Assembly (NCBI GenBank): GCA_041653835.1
Contig: JBAZEP010000007.1
Location: forward strand, 1 to 55,119
Direction of reading: 5' to 3'
DNA from: Candidatus Omnitrophota bacterium
Lineage (GTDB): Bacteria > Omnitrophota > Gorgyraeia > Gorgyraeales > Gorgyraeaceae
Length of the DNA: 55,119 nt
The notes below the pieces were generated by a model. The model made no database searches and was not told the origin of the DNA. It worked only from the letters and a program-made list of their open reading frames with translations. Shown one piece after another: positions 823-51,105 of the stretch. Position numbers and translations under genes: made by a program. Numbering within the stretch: the first letter of the stretch is position 1; each line of letters begins with the position of its first letter.

Positions 823-1659
823 CTAATCCAAGAGTTTCTTGCTTTGAGTTTCTTTTAGATAATTTTTACGCGTTAATACTTTTTTACCGCTCTTTCTTTC
901 CAATTCTTTTCTCGCGTTGCCCGCGACAGCGCCGCCTTCCTGGGCCGCTTGCTTGTTCTCGATAAATCCCTGAGCATTTTTATTCATGGTAATTTCTTTA
1001 GTGGATGCCTCTCCAAGCATTGAGAAAATTAACTCCAAGTCATTCATATGATCCCGCAGATTCTCCCGCTTCAACCTTTTAAACTTTTTATACGCGGATG
1101 GAGTCAGGCCAAAAGCTGCTTTCGATATCTCAGCGGTCAGGATTTCATATTCCCTGGGTTTTCTTATATCTCTTTTTTGCCATTGGTCAGTTAGTTCTTC
1201 CCGAATAGCTATACCGCGTAGTCTCTTTTCTATCCAGTCATCGCTGTATCCTTTCGCCTTATATAATGCCCGCGTTCTCTTTGTAGCTAGTTCAGGATCT
1301 TCTATTTCCTGAATCCGCTCATAGCCGACCCTTGCCAGCCACCTTTTAAATGGTTCAGCTTTAGGCGATGGAACTGACTGGATAATACGAAAAATGCCTT
1401 CTGTATTGGCACAATCTGTTTCATATTTTTTACCATCCAAGGCTTCCAATTTCAGTCCGTGACAAAATGTCACGACCTCACTTCCTTCCGCTGTTAATCT
1501 TTGTTTGAGCTTTCTCCAATATGAGCCTGCATCTAAGCTCTCAGTAAGAACATTACATACATCCACAACCGAAAACCACCATTCATTCTTATGAATGGTT
1601 TTCCTGATCTCTTTCTTCCGGAAAATGGCAATTTTAGTAACAGCTGTTTGTTTTGTCAT
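823..1659 (-). CDS. Bro-N domain protein (phage antirepressor / BRO family)
   Basis: N-terminal IRKTIHKNEWWFSVVDVCNVL...YWRKLKQRL and IFRIIQSVPSPKAEPFKRWLARVGYERIQEIEDPE are typical of bacterial Bro-N proteins. Confidence 0.85.
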   Translation of the reverse strand: MTKQTAVTKIAIFRKKEIRKTIHKNEWWFSVVDVCNVLTESLDAGSYWRKLKQRLTAEGSEVVTFCHGLKLEALDGKKYETDCANTEGIFRIIQSVPSPKAEPFKRWLARVGYERIQEIEDPELATKRTRALYKAKGYSDDWIEKRLRGIAIREELTDQWQKRDIRKPREYEILTAEISKAAFGLTPSAYKKFKRLKRENLRDHMNDLELIFSMLGEASTKEITMNKNAQGFIENKQAAQEGGAVAGNARKELERKSGKKVLTRKNYLKETQSKKLLD

Positions 1660-1781: not shown

Positions 1782-3713
1782 TCAATCTATAAATTCTCTG
1801 TGCCATAGTTCCAGGAACAATAAACTCCAAATCCTGGCGCCGTTATTGGCCCTGGCCGCTACATGCTCATCCAAAAGTCTTTTTACGCTTTCTTTCTTAA
1901 AATAACTTCTCTTAAGGCTTTTTTCACTCATTAAAACCTCATAGGCATAATTTTTCAGTTCCACCCTGAACCATTTATCAACAGGGATACCGAACCCCAT
2001 TTTTCCCCTTCCGAGTATCTCTTCAGGAAGTTTCCCATGCAAAGACTTTTTAAGTATATATTTAAGTTTCATGCCCTTTATTTTCATATTGCTCGGCATG
2101 GCGGCGCAAAACTCCATCATCTTATGGTCCAGGAACGGAGACCTTCCTTCCAGCGAATTCGCCATTGTAGCGATATCCATCTTTACAAGCAGATCGTCCA
2201 GCAGGTTGGTTTTTATATCCGCGTACATCACTTTATCGACCACGTCAGGCGAGCCGCATTCATTAAACGCCGTATTCAAATAATCGAAAGAATGCCTGGC
2301 GGATATTTCTTTATTAAATTCATCGGTAAATAGACTATCCTTTTCATGATTATTAAATATAGCCATCCAATTGTAATGCCTTTTTTTGTATGGTTCAGAC
2401 AATTCCATTAGAAATCTTCTAGTTCTTGCTCTAGAATCTTTAACCCCTAAAGATTCAGGTATTTTCCTAATAATCAGTTTTATGATACTTTCCTTAAACG
2501 GAACTGGTATTCTATTGAGTAATTCCGCATATTTGGCTGCCATGAACCTTTCATACCCTCCAAAACATTCATCCCCGCCGTCGCCATTAAGTGCTACCGT
2601 CACTTCCTGTCTGGTCATTTGAGCTACATAATAACTTGGAAGCGCCGAAGAATCAGCGTAAGGCTCATTATAATGCCATACGAGTTTCGGCAGAAGTTCT
2701 ATCGCATTTGGTTTTACAATATATTCGCGGTGCTCTGTCTTAAATCTATCCGAGATAATCCTCGCGTATTTTAACTCACTGTATTTCTCTTCATTAAAGC
2801 CTATAGAAAACGTTTTTACGGGTTTTGAGTTTAATTTGCTCATCATATAAACTACCACGCTTGAATCTATGCCACCGCTTAAAAATGCCCCGAGCGGCAC
2901 ATCGCTTATAAGCCTGATCTTAGTGCATTCCTCAAGAAGTTCCATTGTCCTGTCACAATAATCTTCTTCGGACATCCTGATCTTCCTGGAAAAATCCAGT
3001 TCCCAGTATTTTTCTAATTTTATATTACCTTTTTCATATATCATAAAATGCGCGGGAGGCAGTTTCATAATATTTTTAAACGCGGTTTCAGGAGTCGGCA
3101 CATATCCATAGCTCAAATAGTCTGTTATGGTAGGCCTATTGACTTCCACAGATGTTTCAGGATCCTGAAGAATGGATTTAATTTCAGAAGCGAAAGTTAG
3201 TGTTTGATTTTTATAAGTATAAAATAGGGGCTTTTTACCGATCCTGTCTCTCGCGATAAAAAGCCTATCTTTATGGCTATCCCATATAGCGAAAGCGAAC
3301 GGGCCTCTCATATCTTTAAGGCATTCTACGCCTTTATCCTCATATAAATGCAATACCATTTCGGTATCGGTATGGGATTTAAACCTGTGGCCTTTTTTCT
3401 CAAGCGCTTTTTTTAATTCTAAAAAATTATAGATCTCTCCATTCAGGACTATCCAAATAGCGCCATCTTCATTGCTCATAGGCTGATGCCCGGCAGGTGA
3501 TAAGTCAATAATAGCGAGCCTCCTATGCCCCAGCCCAACACTAACAGAACTGCTACTGCCAATACTGTTCGAGCGAGACCGCGAAGCGGCCGAGTCGAGA
3601 ACTTCTACTCCCTCGCTATCCGGCCCTCTATGCACTAAAACCTCACACATTTTACGTATGAGGTTTTCACTGACCACGCTATTTAAGCTGATCTTCCCGC
3701 ATATTCCGCACAT
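1782..3713 (-). CDS. asnB: Asparagine synthase (glutamine-hydrolysing) family amidotransferase, probably glycan amidation; carries an in-frame repeat-derived insert
   Basis: Ntn start MCGICG (true ATG at 3713, not 3755), HRGPD, LGHRRLAIID, NGEIYN, RDRIGKKPL, LSGGIDSS, GDGGDECFGGY. Confidence 0.93.
   Translation of the reverse strand: MCGICGKISLNSVVSENLIRKMCEVLVHRGPDSEGVEVLDSAASRSRSNSIGSSSSVSVGLGHRRLAIIDLSPAGHQPMSNEDGAIWIVLNGEIYNFLELKKALEKKGHRFKSHTDTEMVLHLYEDKGVECLKDMRGPFAFAIWDSHKDRLFIARDRIGKKPLFYTYKNQTLTFASEIKSILQDPETSVEVNRPTITDYLSYGYVPTPETAFKNIMKLPPAHFMIYEKGNIKLEKYWELDFSRKIRMSEEDYCDRTMELLEECTKIRLISDVPLGAFLSGGIDSSVVVYMMSKLNSKPVKTFSIGFNEEKYSELKYARIISDRFKTEHREYIVKPNAIELLPKLVWHYNEPYADSSALPSYYVAQMTRQEVTVALNGDGGDECFGGYERFMAAKYAELLNRIPVPFKESIIKLIIRKIPESLGVKDSRARTRRFLMELSEPYKKRHYNWMAIFNNHEKDSLFTDEFNKEISARHSFDYLNTAFNECGSPDVVDKVMYADIKTNLLDDLLVKMDIATMANSLEGRSPFLDHKMMEFCAAMPSNMKIKGMKLKYILKKSLHGKLPEEILGRGKMGFGIPVDKWFRVELKNYAYEVLMSEKSLKRSYFKKESVKRLLDEHVAARANNGARIWSLLFLELWHREFID
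3560..3602. repeat. Half-copy of the TTCTCGAC/GTCGAGAA palindromic repeat inside the asnB reading frame
   Basis: CAATACTGTTCGAGCGA-gaccgcgaagcggccg-AGTCGAGAAC matches the right arms at 47739-47790, 48139-48190 and 51080-51105. Translated on the minus strand as VLDSAASRSRSNSI. Confidence 0.85.
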
Positions 3714-46136: not shown

Positions 46137-47798
46137 TTAGAACCTCCTTGTTACTTCCGCGCCGAGGATATGGTTTTTGGCGCTCAAAGCGGTATTCTCG
46201 AAATTTTCTATATCGTCAAATTCGTAAAACAGGGTTACGTCTACATTATTTACATTATACATCTTTAACCCGTTAATAACAGTAAATTCTAATTTTATTT
46301 GATCCGTGGTTTCTATGAATACCCTGGTAAGGCCGCTTCTCATATGGCTGAAAGTAAAGCTCGCCCGGTATTCCTCCGGAAAGCTGAATATGGCGCTAAG
46401 CGCGATATCCTCCGAATCTCCTCCAGCGTGATGGCCTATAAAATTTCCCTTACGGGTATAGCCCGATGTGTATTTAAAATGCGAGTAAAAGGCCTCGTGG
46501 AATTTAGCTATCTCGGCCTTTACATCAAAACCCGGGATCTTGAATACATCCGTGAAATACGCGCCTATTATATGCGCGAGGTCCACCGGCACGCTTTTCG
46601 CCTCGTCTTCCGCCCCCCATTCCATATAAAGTTTCGCGCCTGTGGCTATGGGCAAAAACCTGTCTATGCGCCTCAGGAACAACTGGACATCCCCTGACAT
46701 GATATGGTTTTCAGGGTCATCCGCTCCGCCGCCCGAGCTGAAGAAAAGAGAGCTGTTGCCTACAAAATCATTGAAACCATATCTATTGACGCCTTTGCCG
46801 CCGAACATCAGGATATGGCCGACGCCGAATTTTAAGAACTCCGACGGTATATAGTCCAGTTTCCATCCCGAGACCAGGGCATGCGGAAGGTTGAATTTTT
46901 TGTCCATCCTTGAAATAAACCATGTACCGCTCCACCTGCCCATCTTTTTGAAAATCCCTGGAAGCCTGAAAGGCCGGATGTTATTGATCCTTAAAGCATC
47001 CATGGGAAAGGCATTGTCGGTCATAAGTATCGAGCCGTGAAAACCCGGGCCCCACCACGCGGAAGTCCTCCCGATAGAAAATTCCGTGTTCCAGCCACGG
47101 GGATTTATCCTTAAATGAGCGTTTTCGATATTCAGGTCTGTATCGTCCTTGGAATATCTTATGCCGGGGGTAATTGATACGGCGTATAAGTCAGCGAGTT
47201 TCGCCCAGCCTGTAACTTTGATCCTGGAGTTGATACCGTCTTTTAAAACCCATCCATCCTTGTTTTCGAACAGCATGTTGTCTGAATCAAACACGCCGTA
47301 TGCCTGTTCAACGCTCATGTCGCTGATAAGTCTTATTGTATTTTTAGGAAGAGGCTGGTCAAAAGTACTCGCGACCTCAACGCCTATATCGACAAGCTCC
47401 ACCCTGAACTCATCTATCAATTTATTCAAAAGTGTTTCAAGGTAATCCTGCTCGTTCCATTCGAATTCTCCACTATAATCCCTTGCCTTGTCAATGGCGG
47501 TCTTTACGATATTAGCCATTTTAATACGTGAGACAGGCCTTATGCCGATATCCGCGATATCGCACAGCCCGACAATGGCCAGTTTTTCTATGGCGTCGTA
47601 ACTCCAGTGGCGTAAGGGGACATCGACGGAAGGGGAAGCGTAACACTCGCTGGCTACAAAAAGAATTGTTACAAATAATATTGTTCGAGCGAGGTCAAAT
47701 ATTCTTCTCGACTTCGCTCGAAGAGTATTGTGTCTATCCAATATTGTTCGAGCGAACATCGTTTCCAGGCATGTGAGCTTAGTCGAGAACCTTACCAT
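46137..47798 (-). CDS. wzi: Capsule assembly Wzi-family outer-membrane protein; N-terminus built from repeat DNA
   Basis: SIGRTSAWWGPGFHGSILMTDNA, YMEWGAED, IGHHAGGDS, terminal F. Start chosen at ATG 47798 overlapping the GIY-YIG stop (alternative ATG 47759); the track start at 47849 overlaps the nuclease gene. Confidence 0.8.
   Translation of the reverse strand: MVRFSTKLTCLETMFARTILDRHNTLRAKSRRIFDLARTILFVTILFVASECYASPSVDVPLRHWSYDAIEKLAIVGLCDIADIGIRPVSRIKMANIVKTAIDKARDYSGEFEWNEQDYLETLLNKLIDEFRVELVDIGVEVASTFDQPLPKNTIRLISDMSVEQAYGVFDSDNMLFENKDGWVLKDGINSRIKVTGWAKLADLYAVSITPGIRYSKDDTDLNIENAHLRINPRGWNTEFSIGRTSAWWGPGFHGSILMTDNAFPMDALRINNIRPFRLPGIFKKMGRWSGTWFISRMDKKFNLPHALVSGWKLDYIPSEFLKFGVGHILMFGGKGVNRYGFNDFVGNSSLFFSSGGGADDPENHIMSGDVQLFLRRIDRFLPIATGAKLYMEWGAEDEAKSVPVDLAHIIGAYFTDVFKIPGFDVKAEIAKFHEAFYSHFKYTSGYTRKGNFIGHHAGGDSEDIALSAIFSFPEEYRASFTFSHMRSGLTRVFIETTDQIKLEFTVINGLKMYNVNNVDVTLFYEFDDIENFENTALSAKNHILGAEVTRRF
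47677..47692. repeat. Partial arm of the palindromic repeat within the wzi signal-peptide region
   Basis: AATATTGTTCGAGCGA, identical to 47740-47755 and 51080-51095. Confidence 0.75.
47704..47790. repeat. Palindromic repeat copy 1 (downstream of GIY-YIG gene)
   Basis: C-TTCTCGACT-TCGCTCGAAGAGTATTG-tgtctatc-CAATATTGTTCGAGCGA-[25 nt]-AGTCGAGAA-C; nested inverted repeats. Confidence 0.9.
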
Positions 47799-48064
47799 TC
47801 TTTTTTCCATTCCCCTTTTATGAGTTTCTCTTTCTTTTCCCGATTCCAATCCTTGATTTGCTTCTCTCTCTTTCTCGCTTCTTCTATATTTTCATGTTCT
47901 TCGATATAAACAATTTTTTTCACGCCATGTATAGAAGTATATTTACTTCCCATCCCTGAAATATGCTGATCATATCTAAGATAAGGCTGCCATGTCATCC
48001 CTGTATAATATGTCCCATCTTTACATTCAATGATATAAATATACCATTTCCATGGTTCTTTCAT
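47792..48064 (-). CDS. Stand-alone GIY-YIG nuclease (UPF0213/YhbQ-like), 90 aa
   Basis: WYIYIIECKDGTYYTGMT (GIY-YIG motifs), LRYDQH (catalytic Arg region), EARKREKQIK (metal-binding Glu). Confidence 0.9.
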   Translation of the reverse strand: MKEPWKWYIYIIECKDGTYYTGMTWQPYLRYDQHISGMGSKYTSIHGVKKIVYIEEHENIEEARKREKQIKDWNREKKEKLIKGEWKKEW

Positions 48065-48077
48065 AAAACACTATTAA

Positions 48078-48190
48078 CTTCTCGACTTTGCTAACGTATT
48101 ATGCCTTCACGTCTGCTCGAAGAATATTGTGTCCATTCCAATATTGTTCGAGCAGAAATATTGCGTATACACGTAACCTTGGTCGAGAAC
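48078..48190. repeat. Palindromic repeat copy 2 (upstream of GIY-YIG gene)
   Basis: C-TTCTCGACT-[25 nt]-CTGCTCGAAGAATATTG-tgtccattc-CAATATTGTTCGAGCAG-[25 nt]-GGTCGAGAA-C. Confidence 0.9.
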
Positions 48191-48201
48191 CTTCATATCC
48201 G

Positions 48202-49131
48202 CTAGGAAGATCTAAACCATTCTATTGTATCTCTTAATCCTTTTTCCAGGTCAATCTTCGGCTCCCATTGCAAGAGTTTACGCGCTCTTGTAATATCAGG
48301 CTGACGGAGCTTAGGGTCATCTACGGGAAGAGTATTATAAATAATTTTACTTTTGCTTCCCGTAAACTTAATGATAAGCTTGGCCAAATCTATGATCTTC
48401 AGTTCATGCGGGTTGCCTATATTCACAGGGTCATGGATATCGGATTGGCTTAAACGATATATGCCTTCGACAAGATCTGAGACAAAGCAAAGGGACCTCG
48501 TCTGGCTGCCTTTGCCATAAACAGTGATGGGTTCGTTTTTCAGCGCCTGATTTATAAAATTCGGTATAACCCTGCCGTCGTTCTTCCTCATCCTGGGACC
48601 GTAAGTATTGAAAATACGCACTATCCTGGTGTTGAGCTTGTGGGCGTTATGATATGCCATTGTAATGGCCTCGGCAAAACGCTTTGCCTCGTCATAGACA
48701 CCGCGCGGGCCCACGCAATTCACATTGCCGTAATAAGATTCAGGCTGGGGATTGACCTTTGGGTCGCCATACACTTCCGAAGTGGATGCCAGGAGATATT
48801 TGGCATTTTTAGCCTTAGCCACGCCAAGCGTATTGTGCGTGCCCAATGAACCGACTTTAAGAGTGGGTATCGGATACATCAGATAATCTATAGGACTGGC
48901 GGGCGACGCAAAATGCAGGATAAGGCTGATATCGTCTTTTAGATCTATATGTTCTGATACATTATGCTTTATGAATTTGAAATCCGGGTTTTTCTCAAGG
49001 TGAGAAATATTGGCAAGGCTTCCTGTTATAAGGTTATCCATACAGATAACCTTATGGCCTTCTTTAAGGAACCTGTCGCATAAATGGGAACCGAGAAATC
49101 CTGCCCCGCCGGTGATCAATACGTTTTTCAT
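48202..49131 (-). CDS. uxs: UDP-glucuronate decarboxylase (UDP-xylose synthase)
   Basis: [46 protein letters not shown]. Confidence 0.9.
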
Positions 49132-51041: not shown

Positions 51042-51105
51042 CTTCTCGACTTCGTTCGCTTTGCTCACTTCGCTCGAAGAATATTGTTCGAGCGAAGTCG
51101 AGAAC
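51042..51105. repeat. Palindromic repeat copy 3 (directly after the dehydrogenase stop codon)
   Basis: C-TTCTCGACT-[18 nt tcgttcgctttgctcact]-TCGCTCGAAGAATATTGTTCGAGCGA-AGTCGAGAA-C. Confidence 0.9.

Follow-up and report, generated by a model that had tools for sequence, protein, structure and literature searches.

Single-stranded DNA nucleases of the Ssn type have been described together with hairpin repeats (NTS/SRM) in an NTS-ssnA-NTS architecture (Chenal et al., Nat Commun 2025; PMC11893778), and the authors point out the insertion sequence-like look of this unit. The Ssn clade corresponds to the family cd10448 of the CDD, and its repeats follow the published SRM consensus HGTCWYN(0-2)YYVSBRHN(0-5)WNVSBRGN(0-2)RNCYNB (PMC11893778). 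Rickettsia palindromic elements (RPE) and other miniature inverted-repeat transposable elements have furthermore been shown to fuse in frame with host open reading frames (ORFs) (PMC10969869). Here we describe a cassette composed of a GIY-YIG nuclease gene and nested-hairpin repeats, which lies between the genes uxs and wzi in a stretch of 55,119 nt of Candidatus Omnitrophota bacterium (assembly GCA_041653835.1, contig JBAZEP010000007.1, genome size 1.7 Mb; in the following the window). We consider it probable that this cassette displaced the start of wzi, that the Wzi precursor (pre-Wzi) starts at one of the ATG codons at the end of the nuclease gene and runs through a signal-peptide n-region encoded by repeat DNA, and that the junction was exchanged between lineages by recombination.

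The cassette at the uxs/wzi junction

The cassette was detected at the uxs/wzi junction of four lineages, namely in this genome and in the lineages L051 (a metagenome contig), L076-78 and L081. In the window uxs, the nuclease ORF and wzi are all encoded on the minus strand, and the cassette has the orientation of the operon. The junction comprises the following features, given in the direction of transcription with the underlying evidence in brackets:

48202..49131, minus strand: uxs, the upstream operon gene, encoding a UDP-glucuronate decarboxylase-like short-chain dehydrogenase/reductase (ORF list; Pfam PF16363/PF01370; wzi-adjacent orthologs in relatives)
48212..48220, minus strand: relic of the putative ancestral wzi start, ATG GTT TAG, closed at codon 3 (open GTG/ATG/TTG-GTT equivalents in at least 13 cassette-free relatives)
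48191..48196, minus strand: orphan ATG AAG (no counterpart after the uxs stop in L051, L076 and L081)
48078..48190, minus strand: RepA, a full nested hairpin of 113 nt (inverted-repeat search, RNA fold, family census)
47792..48064, minus strand: GIY-YIG nuclease ORF of 90 aa, ending ...KGEWKKEW* (PF01541, E 4.6e-16)
47808..47810, minus strand: candidate wzi start ATG (MEKRMVRF..., 58-aa leader; chosen by gene callers on the sister contig)
47796..47798, minus strand: candidate ATG for the start of wzi that shares bases with the nuclease stop (ATGGTAA; leader of 54 aa; equivalent in all four cassette-bearing lineages)
47704..47790, minus strand: RepB, a full hairpin of 87 nt (29 codons) with the in-frame translation FSTKLTCLETMFARTILDRHNTLRAKSRR (inverted-repeat search)
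47677..47703, minus strand: degenerate outer module and terminal half repeat (AATATTTGACCTC-GCTCGAACAATATT), coding for IFDLARTIL (homologous junction in L051, L076 and L081)
47637..47676, minus strand: predicted h- and c-regions of the Wzi signal peptide (FVTILFVASECYA; hydrophobicity, alignment to the leaders of relatives)
46137..47636, minus strand: mature Wzi, 498 aa and stop, intact (PF14052; orthologs; tree)

The 3' end of uxs reads GAA TGG TTT AGA TCT TCC TAG with the stop TAG at 48204-48202, and 11 nt including the ATG AAG separate this stop from RepA. The latter has the module order GTTCTCGAC-x28-GCTCGAACAATATT-loop-CAATATTCTTCGAGC-x'-GTCGAGAAG, reaches -46.2 kcal/mol in the RNA fold (z -5.4) and is followed by the nuclease ORF after a spacer of 13 nt. 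At the opposite side the segment 47677..47703, in which the half repeat copy proper occupies 47690-47677, represents the conserved right end of the cassette and lies directly against the h-region. The Wzi ORF matches PF14052 (Caps_assemb_Wzi) with an E-value of 4.9e-56 over the residues 190-553, its orthologs (75-77% identity) have no internal stops, and it is directly followed by the gene of a Wza-like exporter (ATG 46136; Poly_export/SLBB protein). No terminator-like sites were found within 47500-48400, and promoter-like sites in the cassette were not more frequent than expected by chance. Since the cassette lacks a terminator-like site and wzi is intact, transcriptional read-through and a functional Wzi are plausible.

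An identical arrangement is present in two further assemblies, a Logan contig (100% identity) and a JGI contig (99.77% identity), and the cassette is thus not an artefact of the assembly. In exact-protein look-ups of contigs of the same species the nuclease succeeded, and UXS gave no match.

Across the genus, the family and the order wzi is located directly after uxs. In cassette-free genomes its start codon is GTG, or ATG or TTG within the genus, and is formed by the Trp-Phe codons of uxs in their +1 frame, 23-24 codons before (N/S)PSVDVP, or 34 codons where a small hairpin insert is present. As the wzi start sits inside these codons, uxs and wzi overlap in the cassette-free genomes. The (A/G/T)TG-GTT start was identified in at least 13 cassette-free relatives (G014, G025, G013, G015, G023, G021, G006, G010, G011, L053, L055, L057 and L058), and based on its conservation the cassette-free state is judged to be ancestral. 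This agrees with the initial annotation of the window, according to which a nuclease-repeat unit had inserted into the start of wzi: the site occupied by the cassette is the one at which cassette-free relatives have overlapping uxs and wzi. In the window the ancestral start has become the relic ATG GTT TAG, and it is likewise closed (GTT TAA/TAG) in L051, L076 and L081.

Taking further interrupted junctions into account (window 48212-48220, L051, L076, L081 and L004/L054/L061), the relic start is followed by GTT TA(A/G) in 7/7 sequences. Among the uninterrupted junctions, those read at this site stay open and continue with GTT CAA, CGC, CTC, TGC or similar. The stop at codon 3 could reflect a released constraint or a selection against spurious initiation in these phylogenetically non-independent sequences.

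Two features distinguish this genome from the simpler loci in the other lineages. Upstream, RepA is made complete by an additional left half-hairpin, in front of which stands CGGATATGAAG; downstream, a full in-frame RepB of 87 nt separates the terminal half repeat from the nuclease stop. The exact deletion of RepB in silico leaves MVRIFDLARTILFVTILFVASECYA, a conventional signal peptide of 25 aa, and RepB therefore looks like a later in-frame addition to a leader that was already encoded by the cassette.

The translation start of pre-Wzi

The nucleases of the other cassette-bearing lineages are 89% (L051), 83% (L076-78) and 77% (L081) identical to that of this genome, and the Wzi of L081 is closest to other genera. 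On the left side L051, L076 and L081 share the uxs stop, 0-7 nt and (A)ATATT-CTTCGAGC...GTCGAGAAG, followed by the nuclease gene. On the right side the nuclease gene is followed by GTTCTCGAC, an arm and GCTCGAACA(A/G)TAT, which directly joins the hydrophobic core of the Wzi leader. In 4/4 lineages the residues ARTIL, ARTVL or ARTIS at the boundary between n- and h-region are encoded by this terminal GCTCGAACA(A/G)TAT module, which bears out the claim of the initial annotation that repeat DNA codes for the n-region of Wzi.

The ATG that overlaps the nuclease stop is formed by the last Glu-Trp codons of the nuclease gene and lies in the frame of wzi, which is open up to the mature protein in 4/4 lineages:

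This genome: stop/start overlap ATGGTAA, 54 codons to mature Wzi
L051: stop/start overlap ATGGTGATG, 39 codons to mature Wzi
L076: stop/start overlap ATGGTAAA, 32 codons to mature Wzi
L081: stop/start overlap ATGGTAATG, 43 codons to mature Wzi

Between this ATG and mature Wzi no in-frame ATG, GTG or TTG exists in L076, and L081 has a single other canonical start in frame, located 4 codons before the cleavage site. In two of the four lineages (L076 and L081) there is consequently no other usable canonical start. Furthermore, the KGE codons at the 3' end of the nuclease gene form a purine-rich stretch resembling a Shine-Dalgarno (SD) sequence (AAGGAG, AAGGGG, GGAGG), and in this genome the last 25 nt of the gene combine this stretch with two ATGs in the frame of wzi. 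Since the stop-overlapping ATG is in frame in all four lineages and two of them lack another usable start, initiation very probably depends on the nuclease 3' end, as the initial annotation had supposed, with the n-region being encoded by repeat DNA.

In this genome the canonical in-frame starts 5' of the hydrophobic segment ILFVTILFVA are TTG 47849, ATG 47810, ATG 47798, ATG 47759 and TTG 47741, the last two being located in RepB. No in-frame ATG, GTG or TTG was found between 47741 and mature Wzi. The starts listed previously (47798, 47759 or a TTG) are indeed in frame, and only ATG 47810 had been overlooked. ATG 47798 is favoured as the start, together with ATG 47810. The leader from 47798 comprises 54 aa including 7 Arg and 2 Lys, exactly as given in the initial annotation. 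According to simple heuristics its n-region has a net charge of about +6, its core ILFVTILFVA, the most hydrophobic 10-mer of the leader, has a mean hydropathy of 3.17, and C-Y-A precedes SPSVDVP. Cleavage of the signal peptide is predicted after CYA, and the leader aligns with those of relatives ending ..LEA/..LHA before (S/N/H)PSVDVP.

Presumably, a mobile cassette consisting of an Ssn-like GIY-YIG gene of 90 aa between copies of its cognate nested-hairpin repeat took over the overlapping uxs/wzi junction and cut wzi off from its ancestral start. Translation of pre-Wzi would begin at ATG 47798 or at ATG 47810, 12 nt upstream, either through reinitiation by ribosomes that have just completed the nuclease ORF or through de novo initiation from the KGE codons with their purine-rich sequence. 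It would then proceed through the right arm of the cassette, here the 87-nt full hairpin and the half repeat, generating a long and positively charged n-region, followed by the h- and c-regions of a putatively export-competent signal peptide and by cleavage after CYA. The junction with or without the cassette would be swapped among related lineages by homologous recombination, with the whole leader travelling along.

Several points weigh against this explanation. With 54-58 aa, of which 38 aa form the n-region, the leader would be unusually long, and the SD-like AAGGGG is poorly spaced, its distance being 14 nt to 47798 and 2 nt to 47810. The internal starts ATG 47759 and TTG 47741 exist in this genome. 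The nuclease gene itself lacks an obvious SD sequence, and translational coupling could therefore deliver few ribosomes. The variable arms of the four lineages have lengths of 28, 46, 19 and 52 nt, all of which are 1 mod 3, but this class is also the commonest genome-wide (10/17 copies), so that frame conservation alone is weak (about P = 0.1) and was set aside as a test of translation. Moreover, the cassettes share ancestry or exchange, and the 4/4 in-frame cases are thus not four independent trials. In this genome, whose assembly does not contain the 3' end of the 16S rRNA gene with the anti-SD sequence, SD cores are enriched upstream of first ATGs (35% compared to a background of 11%).

Wzi may alternatively start inside RepB, de novo at ATG 47759 (41-aa leader MFARTILDRH...) or TTG 47741 (35 aa), independently of the translation of the nuclease gene and with the stop-overlapping ATG as a by-product of the conserved Glu-Trp ending. 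Both codons are in frame, a weak GGA is located 7-9 nt upstream of ATG 47759, and the leader would be shorter and more conventional. The removal of the 63-nt unit between the two GCTCGAACAATATT copies even leaves a textbook signal peptide of 20 aa, MFARTILFVTILFVASECYA. As the nuclease subfamily ends with (E/D)W*, a stop-overlapping ATG furthermore exists whatever lies downstream. However, neither internal codon is conserved, given that L076 has none and L081 only the one close to its cleavage site, and both codons are located in or beside hairpin stems. A start inside RepB therefore seems rather unlikely. Another conceivable scenario is the inactivation of wzi by the insertion, wzi being a recent pseudogene or untranslated. 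The repeats are stop-poor in all frames, which makes an open frame cheap. Taking into account, however, that the mature wzi ORF of 498 codons is intact at about 25% nucleotide divergence from relatives, that open wzi frames persist in four diverged cassette-bearing lineages and in three samples of this species, and that Wza is encoded directly next in the same operon, such an inactivation appears extremely improbable.

According to the initial annotation the ATG at 48196 is the original wzi start, behind which a 485-bp unit had landed and whose precise excision would restore MKGIFDLARTIL.... The arithmetic of this proposal is correct: the ATG AAG at 48196-48191 lies 5 nt past the uxs stop, and the deletion of 47705-48189 (485 bp) joins ATG 48196 in frame, giving MKGIFDLARTILFVTILFVASECYA. 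Besides, this ATG shares its frame with the relic start 24 nt upstream at 48220, and hairpin-nuclease-hairpin units with outer GTTCTCGAC/GTCGAGAAG ends occur elsewhere, for instance in the relative G004. The join is nevertheless sensitive to the flanking base, as had been cautioned, since of the boundaries tested a single one preserves the frame and the additional removal of one or both flanking G (486 or 487 bp) results in a stop, which corresponds to a one-in-three coincidence. Because cassette-free relatives start wzi inside uxs and not after it, 24 nt further upstream at the position of the relic (48220-48218), the native start is not ATG 48196; a native start unrelated to this ATG is the very outcome that the annotation had named as speaking against its proposal. 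No ATG follows the uxs stop in L051, L076 and L081. The excision from outer repeat to outer repeat also fails to yield the state before insertion, as IFDLARTIL is itself cassette repeat DNA, derived from the degenerate outer module and the half repeat and continuous with the right arm of the cassette in relatives. We thus regard an original start at 48196 as very unlikely. Most likely, this ATG straddles the flank/(A)ATAT junction motif and the GAAG tail of the outer module in front of the extra left half-hairpin.

Exchange of the junction and distribution of the repeat family

Within its genus, this genome forms the first branch of the Wzi tree, the cassette-free L057 is the sister of L051 (support 100/99), and cassette-bearing sequences are interspersed with cassette-free lineages. 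The mature wzi of L051 and L057 is 89% identical overall (87-94% in most 90-nt windows) and uxs is 80-94% identical up to its last codons, but the identity drops to 50% in the leader. By comparison, the leaders of this genome and L051 share 80% identity and the remainder 75%. Since L051 matches L057 outside the leader but resembles this genome in the leader, the junction was replaced as one block, which begins with the final ~20 nt of uxs and takes in the cassette and the Wzi leader in full. The body of uxs is unaffected, and the replacement ends on one side in the conserved 3' end of uxs and on the other in the SPSVDVPLRHW codons, which are conserved as well. The contrast between L051 and L057 may result from either a gain by L051 or a loss by L057. 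The junction appears to be a general hot spot where leaders are swapped between species.

Further peculiarities were noted at the wzi leaders of other relatives. A small GC hairpin is present in the Wzi n-region of G006, G010 and G011, and in G005, which has a terminator-like hairpin at the junction, the start is a new TTG. A different NTS-like repeat, ATGTCATTGCGAGCGAAGCGAAGCAATC, is located at the uxs/wzi junction of G009 (L007, 540-640) and G004 (L005, ~1460-1500, reverse strand). It occurs in three copies in G009, and both the ATG of Wzi and its n-region MSLRAK(R/Q)S.. derive from it; the G004 junction also retains a left arm of the present repeat family. Thus, a second, unrelated repeat family (ATGTCATTGCGAGCGAAGCGAAGCAATC) seems to do the same job for Wzi in sister species (MSLRAKRSNL...). 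The Wzi leader of G020 (L027), which has 46 codons from the conserved GTG, contains an in-frame palindromic insert of ~23 codons with partly complementary (AAAACAG)n and (TTTTTGG)n runs. In G017 (L010), which belongs to a sister genus, canonical NTS-like hairpins GTCATTCCCGCGAAAGCGGGAATC flank the wzi region, and the upstream neighbour is not uxs.

The repeat is a nested palindrome of the structure GTTCTCGAC - variable arm - GCTCGAACAATATT/CTTCGAGC - variable arm - GTCGAGAAG, with the outer modules GTTCTCGAC/GTCGAGAAG and the inner modules GCTCGAACAATATT/AATATTCTTCGAGC. The initial annotation had treated the repeats as local to the locus; they turned out to belong to a genome-wide, cross-phylum family. 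Allowing one mismatch at most, GCTCGAACAATATT occurs 7 times in the window (0.06 expected), and 44 matches were counted on both strands of the 1.7-Mb genome. In total, ~30 multi-module repeat loci were detected genome-wide, in addition to half copies and permuted (inner-module-outward) copies. A further full copy within the window fills an intergenic gap:

51042..51105, minus strand: full repeat copy just 5' of the SD sequence and ATG of the next gene (motif search, family census)

The nuclease matches PF01541 with the residues 6-79 of its 90 residues and no further family, and thus contains nothing beyond the 78-position GIY-YIG core. A search against NCBIfam with the nuclease and pre-Wzi gave no match. 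The relatives of the nuclease in the PDB, 1ZG2 and 1YWL, are single-domain proteins of 96-107 aa annotated as UPF0213. The subfamily comprises 198 clusters at E <= 1e-20, whose sources include Patescibacteria and which are 62-83% identical to the query among the 120 of the 198 clusters listed. The possibility that the nuclease ending GAATGGTAA is a captured copy of the uxs/wzi junction GAATGGTT was considered and rejected, as subfamily members elsewhere mostly end with (E/D)W* and one with EWD*.

Repeat motifs flank every close nuclease homolog examined (69-100% identity), and these are located in unrelated gene contexts (G007, G004, G039, L051, L066/69, L070, L073-75, L076-78, L079/80, L081 and L082). 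They were detected at none of 16 loci holding GIY-YIG paralogs of ~40% identity, and they were looked for and found to be absent at the four other GIY-YIG paralogs of this genome. The repeat family is tied to this nuclease subfamily and spans the genome and phyla.

In the tyrS/purH gap of the Patescibacteria contigs L070-L072 a nuclease of 73% identity is flanked by GTTCTCGAC / GCTCGAACAATA / AATATTCTTCGAGC / GTCGAGAAG, and the terminal repeat module directly abuts the ATG of purH. L034 (G039), from another family of the class, contains a nuclease of 69% identity and dense repeat arrays immediately 5' of a uxs homolog, and is another polysaccharide-locus context for the nuclease subfamily. Two of the GIY-YIG paralogs of ~40% identity, at C3:47186-47416 and C6:26246-26476, adjoin tRNA genes and are bracketed by a different pair of inverted repeats (TCCCGAGC..GCGAGGG upstream, CCCTCGC..GCTCGGGA downstream), which looks like a second pairing of nuclease and repeat in this genome.

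Repeat copies were also found in the coding frames of other genes. In full copies 3.9/6 frames are open, compared to 2.0 in composition shuffles, 2.0 in palindrome-preserving shuffles (maximum 3.15 of 300) and 2.6/6 in random genomic segments; since the repeat copies are related, this figure mostly describes their consensus. In valS, an in-frame copy occupies part of the variable loop that connects RFVLMN to LSIADKWILS (C26:9530-9596). This loop is extended by 8-17 aa and contains repeat-coded peptides (FST..., SLEEY..., NIVR...) in this genome, G004, G005 and G007, and is free of such peptides in G006, G008, G009 and G028, i.e. 3/7 of the relatives compared have them (loci L087-L095). An interpretation as an insertion of 23 aa was discarded since the alignment shows a net gain of 8-17 aa in a variable loop. 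Within the window a partial copy lies in frame in a gene for an asparagine synthase-like protein:

3561..3610, minus strand: partial repeat copy in frame in asnB, VLDSAASRSRSNSI... (motif search, frame check)

With its peptide ..GVEVLDSAASRSRSNSIGSSSSVSVGLGHRRL.., HRGPD and LGHRRL stand roughly 15 aa further apart. Further candidate in-frame copies are located in a gene for a MtnA/eIF-2B-like isomerase (C32:16485-16553), in the linker of a heptosyltransferase-like protein of the glycosyltransferase family GT9 (C28:11224-11273) and in the linker between a DUF1573-like and a thioredoxin-like domain (C31:445-547), the latter also being present in the ortholog of G004 (L033, ~2500-2560). The copies in asnB, the mtnA-like and GT9 genes and the DUF1573-thioredoxin linker probably share the reading frame of these genes.

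We tentatively suggest that the cassette might be a selfish element adapted to packed operons, with stop-free arms and an ORF ending in a ribosome-binding stretch, an ATG and a stop. If so, a cassette landing on a gene start could possibly replace the initiation region, be translated as a harmless N-terminal extension, persist and pass between species through recombination at one and the same junction.

Comparison with known systems

Wzi is a conserved outer-membrane capsule protein whose putative translation start and part of whose export signal now come from the cassette, and this state persists in several lineages. The case shows a compact genome tolerating the invasion of an overlapping gene junction, with repeat DNA becoming coding sequence. 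It also matters for gene calling, as in genomes of Omnitrophota and the Candidate Phyla Radiation starts beside such repeats may lie inside the preceding nuclease gene.

The stop/start overlaps ATGGTAA, TGATG and TAATG resemble those of translationally coupled genes (ATGA/TAATG-type), and the ancestral uxs/wzi pair as well as neighbouring operon genes overlap or abut likewise. In contrast to ordinary coupled genes, the upstream partner is here a presumably selfish nuclease gene that replaced the native partner, and the coupling itself is putative. Like RPEs, the repeats are short, stop-poor palindromes tolerated as extra peptide segments in functional proteins. RPEs, however, are mainly internal, whereas the present repeat forms an N-terminal leader and is linked to a nuclease gene whose last codons provide the ATG; this comparison refers to the architecture and not to a sequence relation.

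The cassette also recalls the repetitive extragenic palindromes and bacterial interspersed mosaic elements (REP/BIME) with their RAYT proteins (TnpA-REP, HUH), where a nuclease gene likewise stands between palindromes of its own that have multiplied over the genome as mosaic arrays of modules. The RAYT proteins are HUH tyrosine transposases, in contrast to the putative hydrolytic GIY-YIG nuclease of the cassette, and REPs are typically extragenic and untranslated. With free-standing GIY-YIG homing endonucleases such as Seg of phage T4 the cassette shares the occurrence at the same site in non-sister lineages, the flanks being replaced along with it. Homing enzymes are two to three times larger and possess additional DNA-binding domains, whereas the nuclease described here consists of the GIY-YIG core only. 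Ordinary recombination between species would give the same pattern as homing.

The closest resemblance is to the Ssn-type elements, which were described only in 2025. The cassette shares with them a single-domain GIY-YIG protein of ~90 aa, a hairpin repeat on both sides that is dispersed in many copies over the genome, and a nuclease clade that strictly goes together with a single type of repeat. The repeats differ in being nested double palindromes of 54-113 nt, compared to the hairpins of 20-50 nt in Ssn systems, and in being translated in frame, one cassette giving the start codon and the signal-peptide n-region. The published SRM consensus matched the genome 5 times compared to 3-12 times in shuffled sequences, and none of these matches was located at the repeats or near the GIY-YIG genes examined. 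The cassette is called Ssn-like rather than a proven member of the Ssn systems because its repeats do not fit this consensus; the nearest solved structures are those of UPF0213 proteins. As far as the literature was searched, the takeover of a signal-peptide start by an Ssn-type cassette has not been described. The cassette is a novel form of these only recently reported nuclease/hairpin elements.

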